Part shown: positions 25,303-49,043 of the stretch, piece after piece
Layout of the letters: the number at the start of each line of letters is the position of its first letter
Numbering within the stretch: the first letter of the stretch is position 1
Assembly: GCA_001599295.1 (NCBI GenBank)
Contig: BCGN01000009.1
Coordinates: forward strand, 496,001 to 560,000
Length of the DNA stretch: 64,000 bases
DNA from: Sporopachydermia quercuum
Taxonomy: Eukaryota
Reading direction: 5' to 3'
Made by a program: the position numbers and the translations under genes
The notes under the pieces: model-generated
Told to the model about the DNA's origin: nothing
The model's input: the letters and a program-made list of their open reading frames with translations, nothing else
Databases searched by the model: none

Positions 25303-28274
25303 TTTAATAAGTTTAGCGTTTTCTGATAATTTTCTTTTGAATTCTAACCAATTGTATTGATTGTTTCTTCTATATGTTGTAGTTGTGTGAATTAGCGAAT
25401 GCCTTTTTGACTGGTGATATAGTATCACTTAGTTGCAATTAACGGGATTCTCTAGTTGAGCAAGACTGGATGATTTGAATCAGTTTTAAACGAATGACTG
25501 GAAGTTAGTTTCCTTGTATTTTTTTAGTTGCTGAAAGAGAGATAAATCATATAGCTTCTCTGTTCTTTTATTGCGATAGTAACATAAGTGTTGTACTGTA
25601 TTAAAAAGAAAGAAAGAATAGGTTAAAATCTCTTATTGCCGTCGATCGTAACTCGATACAATAAACTGGCAAAACAAAGAGGGATGTTTGAAATTTGTGT
25701 AGTGTTGTGCCACCAAAGAGAAAATGCCATTGTTATATACCTTACAATAAAATTTTGCGTCAGAAAAGATAGACATCATGATTGTATGGCTGGTTGGAGT
25801 TCAATTCGTACTGATTGAATTGAAGGTAACTCGACGCGATTTTCGGGACAAACATTGGATATTAGATTTATTATGTAAACAAGTAGAAAGTGATTGAATT
25901 TAGTAATAACAATGATCATAATGAGTTTGTTTTCATTGTTTCAAATGGCTGGCAGGTTATATGGAAGAAGAGTTGCATACCATATTTGGTTATACAATAG
26001 GACCCATGATCATTAAGTTAGAGCACTGACAGGGATACTTGGATACTTCGTATATTTATGGCTGGTGGTAGAGATGATTTGAATATTTAATTTTCATTAT
26101 ACGAGTAGCAATAAGGTGATGATGCACATTATTTGGTTCGAAACGACGAAAGGATGAGAAGTACTTTAGGAGGTGAGGTATATTGATGCTGGTTAGTAAA
26201 TTCCAGAAAAGGAAGGAATATTAGTCAAATTGGGATGAGTTTGTTAACTTAATTAAGGTTTGACAATTAAGGTTCTAGATGCAGGGTTTTACATTACGAG
26301 GCAGTTGAAGGGAGTCTTTCTGTGAAATAATAGATGTGGTGGCAAAATACAGTAAATATGTTTTTCTAAACAATGCGAAAGATGATATGATTACTTTCAA
26401 TTAAATTTATTGGAAATTATATGTTTACCCTTTTCATTACCAATTTGAGCATTTAAATACTCTACACATATTATTCTGAACCATTTACTAATAAAGAAGG
26501 ATTTACTAATAAGTTAAGCTAGATTGGGACTAGTCTTGCATACTGTTAAACTAAGTTTTATAAACTCTATTTTAGCTTAACTCAATTCAGCAAACCTCAA
26601 CCATCTGACTCAACTCCAATTGACTACTATAGGTCATTCTTTGGTTGGTGTGATAGAAAGAAAAATTGTTGGTGAATTAATTTTCCAATTAAATGCTCCA
26701 ATTTAATCTCACCAAACTGAGATTTCGGAGTCAAACTTTTGGCGAACTAAGAATACGGCATATGAATTTTAGAAATCCCGAACAAGTCTATCCACACTCT
26801 TCTCGTAGGTTATTAACCAAATAAATGTAAGACAAAGAAATATATATTGTACAAATAAATAGCTAGCTCTCTAAAGAAGCATGCTATTTAACTCCGCTGG
26901 GTCCGAACCTATTCTATTCTATTTCTTCAACAAGCTCGACAGCTTATTAAAGGAATAGAATACCCACGATTCATCACTCAGAACAACTAACTAAACAGAG
27001 TATCCGTCAGTTCAATATCTACCCATCAAATTTAACAATCACCGTAAATAATTACAGTTGGAAGAGAACGCTAGTTCCTTTATCGTTTCATTATATTTTA
27101 TATCAAATGACTTTTAAGCATATTATTTTCTCCTGAAGTCCTCTTGTGATTCACTACCTAAATGAGATATATTGAGTCTACTTACCTGCCATCGTTTCTC
27201 TATTGGGAAGGTGTCAAATTTAAAGTTTGTTTCTTCAAAAACACGTTAACCTTAAAACCGTTTTGTTAACCTTATTTTTCAGATTTCTCAAATCCAGCGA
27301 TGATCTTTGTTTGACATATATTATAACAATGTAAGATTTATTGGTTTGAGAAGTTTTGGTATATGAATGATTAAGATGATTGTCTAGGTTCTTATTCAAG
27401 ATAATTCTTTGGAGTTCTTTTAGCAAGCTGGTGAAGTTTGACAGCTGATAAAGTTTACCATGCATTTTGAACAGGCATTGATTCCTTCATTTAATTCTAA
27501 CTACCGATTTGACATTGACTTCATCATTAGATGAGCCTGGCTTTGTTGTAATGCATTGACTTTTATAGAAAACATTTTTCCAAAGAAGTTGGTTCGTTTC
27601 TATGGCATCAAATAATAAAAGAGCTCGGGGAGTTTTGCGGAAACTCTTTGATTACATTGAGTTATTGGTTCCAATGTTATGTGTTTCATCGAACGAATTA
27701 ACAGTATTCATATGGGTCATCTGGCAAATGGTTCGACACCTGAGGCAACATTTCACTTTGAAAAGCTTTAGATTTTATTTTTTGAAGTGTTATATTATGA
27801 GGTTTTATTTTTCTGTGTTTTCACCATTTTAACTTACAGAAAATGCTGGTTAGTTATAGCAATATTTATACAGAAATATGATTTTCATACTCCTGATTTC
27901 TCTGATTCAAGCCTCTCCTATGAATGTATCTGACAGAGAGCTGTATGCGGTTATTTTGAGAACTATACTTATAATTCCTGTTGTGACTATCCATAATAGC
28001 AGAGAACATCTGAACAAACTGTTTCTGGAGAGAATTCTTCTGGAATAAATAAGCTCTTAAACTTTTCTCTCGCATGATCGGCAGAACAGAATATGCGTTA
28101 TCAACAGCTTGTTAATCAACTCATGAAGACATAAAAATAAAATTAATTCAACCCATATTATACACATTATATATCCTTAACCAACAATAATAATAATAAT
28201 ATTTTTTTACTGCATAATACTATGATCCAATTTGGTTACTTATCAATACCTCATCTCTATCAATATCCATTTGA

Positions 28275-43863: not shown

Positions 43864-45339
43864 ATGGTGCTGATAGGAATACGCAGTAGATTCGGCTTCC
43901 GGCTGATGAAAACTGCTCCTTCCTACATAGTAAGGAACAGTATAAATCAACTTGGTGATAGTAAAAGATACGTTTCTACCACAGTTGGGACTTTTTTCAA
44001 CACGAATACTAATGGCGAATCAATGCTCAGACTGAGAGATTCCCCTATTGATTTCTTCTCAAACTATGGATACATTTATCCTAGCATATCTAAACGACCA
44101 TTCACTTTGACTCAAACTACATCAATATCAGTTAGTAATAAGATTGATAAAAACATTGCATCTTCACCTATTCAAGCTTCAGCTATTGCTGGTGATACCG
44201 TGTCAGTGTCTACTGCCACAGCAGAACCAACCGTTATCAATATACACTCAGCGATACCCTTTGAAGTGAAACCAAAAACACCACGAGAAAGTGACCATAA
44301 AGTCAAAAGCAAAGAAGCTGTTGATTTACGGACTAAGATGAATTATTACGTTGCATTAACCAAACCAAGATTAACCATATTAGTAATGCTTTCAGCAATC
44401 ACTCCTTATTCATTGGCTCCGTACCCTGGAGACGTTGCATCATTAATCTTCCTAACAATTGGTACCACATTATGCTCAGGAGCAGCTAATGCCATTAATA
44501 TGGGTCGTGAGCCTGATTTCGATAAACTGATGGGTCGTACTAAAGGAAGACCTGTTGCCAGAGGTTATCTAACCCCAAGAGAAGCTTATATATTTGCAGC
44601 AGTAATCGGTGTGCTAGGTACAGCGATTCTATACTACGGAGTGAATCCTACAGTGGCAGCCCTTGGATTTGGCAATATTGTCTTATATGCAGGTATTTAT
44701 ACATCAATGAAACGGAAATCTATTCTCAACACATGGGTTGGAGCTATTGTTGGAGCAATTCCACCATTAATGGGTTGGGCAACTGCAGGCCCCTTAACGG
44801 ATTATGGTGCTTGGTGTCTTGCTGGAATTCTTTATGCATGGCAATTTCCTCATTTCAACGCTCTGAGTCATGGAATCAAAGACGAGTACAAACGGGCTGG
44901 ATATATCATGACATCTTGGAGGAATCCAAGTCTCAATGCTCGCGTTTCTTTACGATATGCTATTGCTTTAGTGGGGTTATGTTACGGATTAAGCTATTTT
45001 GAAATCACGGATTGGTATTTCCAATTGGACTCTTCGATATTCAATCTCTGGTTTATTTATGCTGCATATAAGTTTTGGCAGCAACAAAGGATTTGTTTGA
45101 AGAAGAATGCTTATGATGTTACTAATAAGCTGTTCAATTCACCTGAGCTGTTGAATGAGAGAGGTACTGCTAACATCTATGCTAGGAAGTTATTCTGGGT
45201 CAGTGTGTTTTACCTTCCTGCTGTGTTTGTATTGGCAATGTTGCATAAAGAGGGTCAATGGGATTGGCTATTTGAGGGGTATGGATATCACGATGGTAAC
45301 GAGGACGATGAAGACAAGTTAGATAGGAAGAGATTTTGA
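43864..45339 (+). CDS. COX10: Protoheme IX farnesyltransferase, mitochondrial
   Basis: LTKPRLT, MGRTKGRP, NTWVGAIVGAIPPLMGW and WQFPHFNAL, with a basic presequence from the ATG at 43864. Confidence 0.96.
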   Translation: MVLIGIRSRFGFRLMKTAPSYIVRNSINQLGDSKRYVSTTVGTFFNTNTNGESMLRLRDSPIDFFSNYGYIYPSISKRPFTLTQTTSISVSNKIDKNIASSPIQASAIAGDTVSVSTATAEPTVINIHSAIPFEVKPKTPRESDHKVKSKEAVDLRTKMNYYVALTKPRLTILVMLSAITPYSLAPYPGDVASLIFLTIGTTLCSGAANAINMGREPDFDKLMGRTKGRPVARGYLTPREAYIFAAVIGVLGTAILYYGVNPTVAALGFGNIVLYAGIYTSMKRKSILNTWVGAIVGAIPPLMGWATAGPLTDYGAWCLAGILYAWQFPHFNALSHGIKDEYKRAGYIMTSWRNPSLNARVSLRYAIALVGLCYGLSYFEITDWYFQLDSSIFNLWFIYAAYKFWQQQRICLKKNAYDVTNKLFNSPELLNERGTANIYARKLFWVSVFYLPAVFVLAMLHKEGQWDWLFEGYGYHDGNEDDEDKLDRKRF

Positions 45340-46703
45340 ATGCCTGATAGTAAACATGTATATATTCAGACGATTGGCTGTTTTTATTGATATTGTATGA
45401 ACTATCTATTATGAGCAGAGAACTAGAGCATAAATGTTGAGTGAGTGAGGCGGACAGAATCTTAGCTTAATGATTACTAGTTGAGATAACTAGCTCAAAT
45501 ATCTCTAGATTATAGAATCAAGATGAAATTACATCGGAAAAGTGTTTCTGTTGTTTACTAGTGGTCACCACCTATCACATTATCTGATGTGAACAGTGTC
45601 AGCTTAGTATGATCCCTAAGGCTTAAACTACTCTTTTCAATGCTTTTTCATACCATAAATCTTGCTACTATCGTTCTGCATCATATTTACCTATGATTTG
45701 CTGATATATATCTCTTCTTCCCTATTGTTAAATCAGCACTCTATGTGGTTGTATTCTAAGTTTTGTTTCTCATGTGCTTTGCTATTCCCTTTCTGTATAT
45801 AATTGAACCATTTTGAAAATAAACTATGTTATTATATAATATATATAGGCATTTGTAGACGGCGTTATGACTATCGTTTCGTTAGAATACCAATGGAAGT
45901 ATTGTCTCAGGATTCAAATATGACCAGAGATCGTTCATGTTTGTTGAACAACTACAAACATATCGTCAGAAGTAAAAAGAAGAAAAAGTAAAAACGACGG
46001 TCAACGCAAACCACCATACTATGAATACTCTATTACAAGATTATATTACAAAAGACATGTTATAACAACATATCAGATACGTTCTGTCAAGTGAAACGCT
46101 CTGCTTCACAATGATTGAGATTGATAAGCAAAATCATTATCATAGAAGGCAAGCAGTTGAAATACAGATTATGTGTTTCTTCCAAGCAAGTTTAACCACC
46201 ATCTACGTCTTGAGATTAGCAGTTGAATCCTAACCGTGAACAAAAGCAAGAACGATATGTGTAACAAATTGACATCGACAATCTCACCACGTTGGAGAAA
46301 GTCTGCAATGAAGCAGAACAACTGGATCACCTGAAGGGTCGATAATTATCAATGAATCCAGTCCTTCTATCCATCTACCCTCAGTCAATTACAATGAGTT
46401 CGAAGTACAAGGTAGCGTTCTAAGAGAAATGCCTACAAACACTACGAGATACAAGAATTCAGGAATAGCGATCACCAACAAGCAAGATTCAATTTCGAAT
46501 CTGTGCCTTTTTAGTGGATAAAAAGCAATCAACCAAGCTGATCAGAAAGAGCATTCATTCATACTGATGATCAAAAGACATTTTGGATTAGATAATATGA
46601 TATTCAGCTTGACTGAGGCATGATTTTTCTTACATAAACGCAAGAGACCATTGAAAACAAGATTGAAACTGTAAATAATCAACATTGAGATTACATAACC
46701 AAC

Positions 46704-47156
46704 AAATGCTCTTTGACGAAAGCGATTAGGAAGCTGATAGATTAACTATGGCATGCAAATAACATGCACAGTTGTAAACCTTGTAGAATTACCAGATTCG
46801 TCATTTCTANGAAAATTTCAAACTTTAGTTTTTCTTTGCTTGGTTTTTAAGATTAAGAATTTCTGCGTAACTATGCAATATATATGCATATAAAACTATA
46901 ATCAAGGTTAACGTCTATGTGATTCAATGCAATGTCATGTAATGTATTTTACTGTAAGGTAGTGCAATGCAATGTAATGCGATACATGAATGCAAAGAGA
47001 CGTTTAACCTTAAAAATTGAGCAAAGGAAAACTAAAGTTTGAAATTTTCNTAGAAATGACGAATCTGGTAATTCTACAAGGTTTACAACTGTGCATGTTA
47101 TTTGCATGCCATAGTTAATCTATCAGCTTCCTAATCGCTTTCGTCAAAGAGCATTT
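46704..47156. repeat. 137-bp near-perfect inverted repeat (46704-46840 / 47020-47156) around a 179-bp spacer
   Basis: The arms are reverse complements with one visible mismatch and one N at mirror positions (46810 and 47050). Confidence 0.97.
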
Positions 47157-48170
47157 TCAGGAACAATTTTATTTGTTATTTTGAACAATTAGTTTACATT
47201 CAAATGATATTAATGTTAAATTAGTTGTGAGAAAACATCTTATTTCAAATAAACCGTTTCTCAGTTCTTGTTCAAGTATAGAGTCAATGATAACCTCCGT
47301 TTGTATTACTTTTTGTCCATAGTTTTTGAGTTTATGCATTCTCTATCACAGTGAAAATTATGCAAAGCCCACATCAGCAGTCGACTCAATTATCCCATCT
47401 CATGATGAATGAATAAATACATTGATGAATTGATTTGACTATACACTAAGTGTTTATGTGATTTCAAATCGGCAGATCTTTTCCTTCTTTATATCTCATG
47501 ATCAACTAGAAGGCAGAGATAACGGTTGTTTGCAGTTATGTTACCCATCTTTGTAACTTCTGGTTTTGGTTTATCACCACTCAGCAACGTTCAAACAAGA
47601 AGAAAGAACCATTTTTCTATTAGGTATTGAAATACTTGATAAATTATTGATGCAAACCACCAAACTTGTGTTTAACGCTCCACTTCAATCGCTTTATTTT
47701 ACGTTATAATATAACACTTGAATCAATTAAGGTACTTGCAATCTATCTACCTCTGTTATCAGACCGTTAGCAGACACATTTCACCAACAACAGAGTCTCA
47801 ACTGACAAAAGTTTGATCTTCATTTATCTTTCTTTGAAAATTCCAATTGGATTACAACTACATACAACTGGATTATTGTCGTTTCAGCATCCTATCAGAG
47901 ATTCGGTAATAATATCAATCAATTCGATTCATCCGAACAGTTTCATACAGTGACAGAAAACCAGAGCAAAAGAACGAGCAGAAATTGATCTTCTCAACAA
48001 AATTGAACTCGTGCAACTTATATCTTAAGATCTACTGTTATTCTTCCATTGATAAGCCTATCAGATTTACGTATAGACACTCATAAGCGCAACTATCAAC
48101 CAACTACCATTACTTTACAAGATAAAAGTAAAAACATTGTATTCTTATTGTTCGACCGTTATATATTGCA

Positions 48171-49043
48171 ATGTATCTACCGACACTCAACATACGCGAT
48201 AAACATAACTCTCTTCTGAAGGCTTCAAAGGCGAATAAATCAAACTATAATGCAAGCTCAGGTCTAACAACAGAGACAAACTCGTCTTATCTATCTCCAC
48301 TACTACAAGAACAGTACCATTCTCAGCTACGGTACATAAATTGCTTGAAAACGTTTGGTTACACTTATCTAAAGCCTTATGGTATTGAGAGAACAATGAA
48401 AAGCCTACTAGAGTCCCATGGAGATGGAGATGATGAGTTAGTAGATAACTTTGAGGGCGAAGATGAAATAGAAGAAAGGTTTGTTGATGATTTACAGGCG
48501 ACTACAGAAAATGTAGATATGATAGATGAAAGGTTTCATAATGAAGACACTGGATTGAATGTAGAGATTCTCAGAAATGATGGTGATAGCACCAGACAAG
48601 ATCTTGATAGAAGCAGCGTACAGGAAGAAGATCTTGATGCTAATATCCCTAATGAAGAGATAGATTATTATGATTATGAAGAAGGAGATGATGATATGAG
48701 ATCAAGTTATGAGCAGGAACGAGAAATAGATCGCGAGGAGGAGGAAATAGAGAGTAGTAGCTATTTGAATGAACGGTCATTGATGATCTCATCATTTGGT
48801 AATAGAAGAAGTCAAATAGAAAGAGAGTATAATAGCAGTAGTATAATAGATAATAGCAGTAGTTCTCAGTTATCACCATTGAATAGCAATACCAGAAACA
48901 TACTAACTGGTATTGATGGGATAGGAACCGGATTGGAAGGAAATAATAGTTCAATACTTAGCTATTCAAGTGCTTTGAATGAAACGGAAGGACAGGGCGA
49001 AGAAGACGAAGATGAAGAGGAAGGAGAAATGGAAATAGAATGA
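48171..49043 (+). CDS. MND2: Anaphase-promoting complex subunit Apc15/Mnd2
   Basis: LKTFGYTYLKPYGIERTM matches the Apc15 motif and is followed by a long acidic region. It is convergent with YVH1, as in S. cerevisiae. Confidence 0.82.
   Translation: MYLPTLNIRDKHNSLLKASKANKSNYNASSGLTTETNSSYLSPLLQEQYHSQLRYINCLKTFGYTYLKPYGIERTMKSLLESHGDGDDELVDNFEGEDEIEERFVDDLQATTENVDMIDERFHNEDTGLNVEILRNDGDSTRQDLDRSSVQEEDLDANIPNEEIDYYDYEEGDDDMRSSYEQEREIDREEEEIESSSYLNERSLMISSFGNRRSQIEREYNSSSIIDNSSSSQLSPLNSNTRNILTGIDGIGTGLEGNNSSILSYSSALNETEGQGEEDEDEEEGEMEIE

Follow-up and report, generated by a model that had tools for sequence, protein, structure and literature searches.

A single-copy inverted repeat between COX10 and an MND2-like gene of Sporopachydermia quercuum, probably a product of stepwise fold-back copying

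In Saccharomyces cerevisiae, fold-back copying starts from an inverted match of 10 bp that is imperfect and encloses a 41-nt loop; the copies measure 2 to ~150 bp, most of them less than 14 bp, and are sealed by end joining at 0-5 bp of microhomology, with longer inverted repeats as the result (excerpts of PMC11724301). Template switching homogenises the arms of inverted repeats and inverts their spacers in natural yeast strains (excerpts of PMC8604942), and such homogenisation is also described in the available part of PMC8794818. Long near-perfect inverted repeats are unstable in yeast (PMC2908449, PMC6591007), an instability that is lowered by longer spacers (PMC6591007), and the longest perfect inverted repeat of S. 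cerevisiae with a spacer below 77 bp has arms of 30 bp (PMC2908449), as far as the excerpts of these two papers go. Two further systems resemble the locus described here in outline. The palindromic or 'pal' loci of Naumovozyma castellii are inverted repeats of a few hundred bases that form long hairpins, and some of them are not derived from Ty elements; palindromic loci supply 74.1% of siRNA reads, and lengths of 225, ~470 and ~640 nt are given for non-Ty loci in the 30 of 84 rows of Table S4 that were accessible (PMC7528652, in part). Inverted-repeat centromeres, described for Barnettozyma, Komagataella phaffii and Candida tropicalis, have near-identical arms on either side of a unique core, lie in gaps free of genes and mostly in conserved gene neighbourhoods, and their locations have been conserved for ~200 Myr, with exceptions (excerpts of PMC12711049).

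The window, a stretch of 64,000 nt of S. quercuum DNA, is part of contig C9 (942 kb) in a genome of 16.4 Mb and 15 contigs. It contains a long inverted repeat in a gap of 2831 nt (45340-48170) between COX10 and an Apc15/Mnd2-like gene; the stop codon of COX10 lies 1.4 kb to its left and the next start codon 1.0 kb to its right (Table 1). An earlier, sequence-only reading had placed the repeat in a 2.8-kb gap between COX10 and MND2, which we take to be unlinked in S. cerevisiae; size and neighbours stand, with MND2 named from an Apc15p match below cut-off, and the refinement is that the gap is ordinary in length and composition. Seven of 162 sampled gaps between long ORFs measure at least 2.5 kb, a count that introns and short genes may inflate, and the GC content of 0.332 compares with 0.339 +/- 0.019 in 67 gaps of at least 1 kb. 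No Pfam family matched any of the six frames of the gap when read through stops, which bears out the earlier statement that no transposase is present, no Rfam covariance model matched at E up to 1, and no tRNA was found in the window. A bacterial promoter scan and a structure search for RPN8 gave nothing informative.

Table 1. Features of the inverted repeat and its neighbours, in window coordinates
Feature	Position	Strand	Description
COX10 (protoheme IX farnesyltransferase), left neighbour	43864..45339	+	
Left arm, outer zone	46704..46809	+	106/106 complementary to 47051-47156; outer edge sharp
Left arm, middle zone	46810..46840	+	29/31; N at 46810, T/G mismatch 46833/47027
Left arm, inner zone	46841..46856	+	12/16 complementary to 47004-47019
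Left-only stretch, 47 nt	46857..46903	+	flanked by near-identical 8-nt direct repeats 46849-46856 and 46904-46911
Inner imperfect stem, left half	46904..46926	+	partner 46987-47011, 21/25 columns
Loop, ~60 nt	46927..46986	.	two short AATGY pentamer runs, orientation identical
Inner imperfect stem, right half	46987..47011	-	overlaps the inner zone of the right arm
Right arm, 153 nt	47004..47156	-	from ungapped inverted-repeat search
Apc15/Mnd2-like gene, right neighbour	48171..49043	+	Pfam Apc15p, E 8.7e-5, 23.8 bits, just below the 25-bit cut-off

The window has 66 inverted pairs, and the repeat exceeds all others by a wide margin, the runner-up having 36 nt at 72%. Arms of 137 nt (46704-46840 and 47020-47156) had been described as reverse-complementary with a single visible mismatch, and this was confirmed: the only one is T at 46833 against G at 47027, and an N stands at the mirrored positions 46810 and 47050. 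An ungapped inverted-repeat search extended the arms 16 nt deeper, to 46704-46856 and 47004-47156, which gives 153 nt at 97% with 147 nt between them. Mismatches between the arms concentrate near the loop (p 0.0003 when bases are counted, 0.003-0.005 when events are counted), which supports the earlier two-age description of near-identical outer arms around a diverged inner stem. The other elements of that description were also recovered. The imperfect pairing continues inwards, where only 3 of 1000 dinucleotide-shuffled sequences score as high, and the asymmetric insert on the left corresponds to the 47-nt left-only stretch, which carries a TATA-like word at 46879 and would represent an indel by slippage between its flanking 8-mers. 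The AATGC/AATGT pentamers of the loop form two runs on one strand, 46926-46946 and 46966-46981, and a pentamer cluster of this kind was seen once in the window and not at all in 180 kb of the same contig. Folded alone, the inner 179 nt are predicted to be mildly stable at -38.1 kcal/mol, with 13 of 200 shuffles equally low.

At the outer ends the repeat stops sharply. Similarity beyond them was not detectable at any of nine settings, where 11 to 169 of 200 shuffles reached the observed score; older outer arms beyond the present ends were considered for the one marginal setting (11/200) and rejected, the others giving no sign of them. The absence of a target-site duplication noted earlier was confirmed, in that nothing longer than 5 nt was found with boundaries placed up to 6 nt from the ends and duplications of 5 nt or less occurred only at shifted boundaries.

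The presence of the repeat in the DNA was assessed from the contigs of three public short-read runs from two studies, all flagged as possible sources of the assembly and hence not independent of it. In all three runs, the unique flanks reach 30 nt into the arm from both sides and then stop, the 106-nt arm 46704-46809 forms a separate contig at 1.5-2.5 times the depth of the flanks, and a single core of 301 nt (46780-47080), as deep as the flanks, is connected at each end to the arm, with no listed contig piece spanning the entire stretch. A graph of this form is that of a true two-copy inverted repeat and not of an assembly fold-back, the outcome named earlier as fatal to the element. The contig break falls exactly at the N, which makes it most likely that the arms carry different bases there, so that within 137 nt they probably differ at two bases rather than one. 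In a 540-kb sample the frequency of single Ns was 0.00047 per base, too low for a mirrored pair to be due to chance. The Ns reflect either mixing of the arms in the consensus or the presence of both core orientations, and contigs built from 31-nt words show no orientation. Heterozygosity of both arms for the same change was rejected, as it would be expected to fragment the contig graph differently from what was seen.

The element, one arm and the whole gap each matched only themselves in a loose DNA search of the genome, which strongly diverged copies may escape, and the terminal 20-mer with up to 3 mismatches was found at two places, the two arms. The BLASTN-type copy check proposed earlier thus gives a single-copy repeat. 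Arms of at least 60 nt at 90% or more were absent from 197 kb (18 stretches of C9 and five gene loci), from 407 kb of other contigs, from 80 kb around marker genes and from 21 contig ends, a sampling of ~0.9 Mb including overlaps or ~5% of the genome. A comparable structure was encountered once among 30 of the 63 tRNA loci, a 227-nt palindrome at 93% that is built from two halves, inverted to each other, of a dispersed repeat linked to tRNA genes; kinship of the studied repeat with it was rejected for lack of similarity. No related locus with the parent allele or an empty site was found in the metagenome and viral contig searches (an arm 28-mer had 0 matches in metagenome contigs, an arm 20-mer 0 in viral contigs, and 200 pattern matches to COX10 in metagenome contigs yielded 0 confirmed), so that the origin given below is a proposal. 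None of four neighbouring proteins had an exact match in the protein collection, and the nearest relatives of COX10 are only ~60% identical. In a tree of 35 hand-chosen sequences from 120 listed homologues, COX10 sits on a long branch beside Nadsonia, a placement that may be due to long-branch attraction.

Taken together with its surroundings, the repeat is probably a locally made fold-back or template-switch duplication whose arms were extended outwards step by step, starting at a short imperfect stem, and which has no present function. What we infer is how it arose, in how many rounds, and that it has no function now; the anatomy, the single copy, the sharp edge, the gradient of identity and the presence in reads were observed directly. 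In such an event, a single-stranded DNA end at a break or stalled fork would pair with a short imperfect inverted match ~60-150 nt upstream, a polymerase would copy the neighbouring sequence outwards, and the new strand would be rejoined to the far flank, making one arm a reverse-complement copy of the other. With the 3′ end paired inside the stem and synthesis running outwards, the outer bases would be the newest. The long arm is the reverse complement of adjacent DNA and is continuous with the short imperfect inner match, and its outer junction is abrupt and lacks a target-site duplication, both as expected of fold-back copying. Identity climbs outwards from 21/25 columns (~84%) through 41/47 (87%) to 106/106 (100%) and then ends abruptly, and these zones suggest at least two rounds, each of which would have started inside the stem and run outwards, the latest of them recently; alternatively, a single round may have been followed by conversion of the outer part. 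The spacer of at least 147 nt would let the repeat persist. The ongoing homogenisation between the arms proposed by the sequence-only reading is one route to the gradient, but stepwise outward copying explains it equally well and also accounts for the sharp outer edge.

Compared with the fold-back inversions of S. cerevisiae, the repeat shares an inverted match that is short and imperfect, a loop measuring tens of bases, a perfect arm of no more than ~150 bp and an abrupt outer junction without target-site duplication. It differs in that the S. cerevisiae inversions were seen to arise from a known parent allele and mostly stay below 14-34 bp, whereas here the arm lies at the upper size limit and several rounds are proposed. 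Two further fold-back-like palindromes in the genome, in stretches L016 and L012, count in favour of this origin. Against it, by analogy with the cited experiment, 106-153 nt is at the upper end of copy sizes, most of which were under 14 bp. Against neutrality, comparable repeats are rare in our sample and unstable in yeast, so that persistence could hint at selection. Should stepwise fold-back copying be the correct reading, it matters little beyond adding another natural fold-back duplication, a clean one with an apparent record of stepwise outward growth.

The leading alternative, itself unlikely, is a relic palindromic siRNA locus, the transcript of which would have formed a ~150-bp stem cut by Dicer for Argonaute while RNAi worked in the lineage. 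This reading could be compatible with a fold-back origin, the difference being that the locus would once have been used and kept. Either strand is predicted to fold as RNA into one long stem (-273.5 and -260.0 kcal/mol), and shape and size fit the palindromic loci of N. castellii. The genome holds a recognisable relic of Argonaute, with PAZ and Piwi domains, at ~1039100-1042000 on the minus strand of contig C4 (stretches L036 and L109), as well as two RNase III genes (L037 802-2673, plus strand; L038 300-2358, minus strand), one of them intact, encoding an N-terminal domain and two dsRBDs, and the other with stops after the first dsRBD, where the second would be. That the Argonaute relic is still recognisable and the RNase III genes are present indicates that RNAi was lost recently. 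It was nevertheless lost, as this only Argonaute found (one of one candidate) has four in-frame stops in 797 codons, at codons 318, 459, 579 and 797 of the stretch read, along with apparent frame changes upstream in a reading of three frames, and with these stops silencing cannot work now. A second copy of the arm that could have served as a target was not found by the genome DNA search or with the terminal 20-mer. A rough clock also places the last copying of the arms after the loss of Argonaute, the 137-nt arms having diverged by 0.7% each (0.09-2.6) and the dead Argonaute by 2.5-4.8% (0.5-12); the intervals overlap, and the last arm copying was probably later than the loss of RNAi. The earlier suggestion of a long hairpin RNA precursor keeps its fit in shape and size, but the Argonaute gene is broken, which would leave it no more than a role as a relic. 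The 'pal' loci of N. castellii are defined by Dicer-dependent 22-23-nt RNAs and have a working Argonaute, in the part of PMC7528652 at hand, whereas the repeat studied here is known from DNA alone; it resembles a palindromic siRNA locus in potential only and is not a member of that class today. In a yeast newly without Argonaute, the long palindromes, both the studied one and those linked to tRNA genes, could show the fate of hairpin loci after RNAi loss.

MITEs and fold-back DNA transposons are small, non-coding elements with long terminal inverted repeats and sharp ends, and identity that falls inwards from sharp outer ends is typical of terminal inverted repeats. The repeat is alike in being small, non-coding and sharp-ended, and its arms could be read as the terminal inverted repeats of a stranded non-autonomous transposon. 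We consider this improbable. No other copy exists even for the terminal 20 nt at 3 mismatches, in a loose search that may miss strongly diverged copies, the gap holds no transposase, and there is no similarity to the tRNA-linked palindrome family. A target-site duplication is missing although the perfect outer 106 nt would mean a young insertion, and an element with so perfect an outer zone would be too young to have lost both its copies and its duplication. The studied repeat thus differs from such transposons in having no family, no target-site duplication and no matching transposase ends, and the earlier MITE candidate is unsupported, given the single copy and the missing duplication.

Little credence can be given to a structured RNA or UTR element with a function today, such as an RNase III-cut stem that ends COX10 read-through or another transcript. 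The intact RNase III with two dsRBDs would be available for such a role, but the absence of Rfam matches, the lack of donor and branch words on the plus strand of the gap and the distances of the repeat from the COX10 stop and the next start all speak against it, and to our knowledge functional RNA stems are rarely perfect across 106 bp. Three more specific roles were examined and rejected. A hairpin that bridges an intron lacks its consensus signals, neither a GTATGT/GTAAGT donor nor a YACTAAC branch word being found on the plus strand of the gap. Coding arms were suggested by convergent frames of 46 and 52 codons that cross the arms, in which the visible mismatch is synonymous; none of the 20 stop-free frames of at least 45 codons that overlap the gap has a Pfam match. 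For telomerase RNA, the gap matches the 11-nt telomere repeat over 9 nt at best (at 48100), one of four such matches in the window.

A miniature inverted-repeat centromere, with Cse4 on or beside the core between the arms, is very unlikely and is unsupported by the present data, and the same faint chance attaches to a centromere core with ~150-bp arms that fold-back copying would have newly created away from the ancestral sites. In its favour, the repeat is single on C9 as far as sampled (the window and 18 stretches, 244 of 942 kb), and its gene-free 2.8-kb gap is within the 1.1-9.3 kb spanned by the gaps at mapped yeast centromeres (excerpts of PMC12711049). Centromeres with and without inverted repeats also coexist in Barnettozyma, where arm identity is 99-100% (same excerpts). 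The arms of 137-153 nt are, however, short against the 0.5-4.3 kb of Barnettozyma and the 'few kilobases' of C. tropicalis given in those excerpts, and the gap is ordinary in size and GC. Inverted-repeat centromeres have arms of 0.5 kb to several kb and are defined by Hi-C or Cse4 in the accessible parts of PMC12711049, whereas the studied arms have 0.14-0.15 kb and are known from sequence; such centromeres usually sit at conserved gene neighbourhoods, which in this genome lie on other contigs.

Those neighbourhoods were located by ten gene-family searches. Six families, RRP6, TFC3, HAT1, NTH1, NOC3 and the dynamins, are genes that we take to be centromere-linked in S. cerevisiae. The others, RER1, MRP17, URM1 and ECM15, came from excerpts of PMC12711049, and the searches gave 12 loci in all. 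None of the 12 is on C9 and none was recognised in the window, which gives a centromere there no support; the complete contig C7, with telomeres at both ends, is likewise missed with 0/12 loci, so the marker test does not speak against a centromere on C9. Several marker genes lie in conserved clusters on other contigs: URM1 clusters with a TRAP-alpha (IRC22-like) gene and MRP17 with Snf7 and APS-kinase genes. TFC3 is presumably beside ERG26, and HAT1 presumably beside SNF8, judged by N-terminal sequences. Clusters that flank centromeres in other yeasts seem to be kept on C1, C2, C3, C4, C5, C6 and C8, some of the labels being provisional, and C4 carries two of them. The 10-kb stretches at the centromere-linked genes on these contigs, which may miss the centromere itself, contained no long inverted repeat and no sequence shared with the studied gap. 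On C1, ~5.6 kb without an ORF of at least 130 codons (~1478790-1484380; L117 4290-10000) adjoins RER1, a gene that lies beside CEN1 in other yeasts, and this stretch is a better centromere candidate than the studied gap. Ty clusters as centromere marks were uninformative, with one weak integrase match in the genome, on C4.

Contig C9 has a telomere on the left, and its right end is a truncated 5S-like match (E 0.017, below the family cut-off); with an end inside 5S-like sequence, C9 may be a piece of a larger chromosome, which also counts against the centromere reading. The telomere repeat is the 11-mer GGGAGGTAGTT, seen at 10 of the 21 contig ends examined. At other ends, C10 and C11 overlap by 95 nt, and C5 and C12 share the same terminal 240 nt. 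Were the repeat a centromere after all, its arms would have a third to a quarter of the length of the shortest ones in the PMC12711049 survey, as far as its excerpts go; it would link regional inverted-repeat centromeres to point-centromere size, show an inverted repeat arising in place and offer a tractable model for the origin of such centromeres.

A regulated invertible switch, in which recombination between the arms flips the core, is extremely unlikely. Both orientations in the sample would produce the mirrored Ns at 46810/47050, a second mirrored-N pair occurs in the L012 palindrome with its 18-nt arms, and inversion between inverted repeats is documented in C. albicans (PMC6591007, in excerpt). 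Misassignment of reads between the arms accounts for the Ns without any inversion, though, the core has no gene and at most a TATA-like word, and the mismatch 46833/47027 is unambiguous where a full flip might make it ambiguous. Passive inversion of the core is possible, and passive flipping is not a switch. Finally, the repeat is almost certainly not a consensus fold-back of the assembly: the Ns do mark one site at which the assembler or consensus caller was unsure, and the three runs, possibly the sources of the DNA, give no piece across the whole stretch, but all three, from two studies, give the flank, arm and core graph of a two-copy repeat, and the arms carry real differences.

The two other palindromes are of interest in themselves. 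The tRNA-linked one (L016 1254-1480; C4 ~1301590-1301810) is made of two inverted copies of the same ~135-nt repeat end, and the dispersed repeat behind it, ~270 nt long, is found beside nine or more further tRNA loci. The palindrome may be a folded-back solo LTR and not a separate element family, and it recalls the 'palTy' loci of N. castellii. At L012 2695-2734, a perfect palindrome with 18-nt arms carries mirrored Ns around a 2-nt centre, possibly a heterozygous inversion of the spacer. Within the window, a weak palindrome of 48 nt at 79% lies at 26915-26962 in another 2.8-kb gap. Around the studied repeat, the A/T skew across 45940-47590 in 150-nt bins is positive on the left (up to +0.31) and negative on the right (to -0.20).
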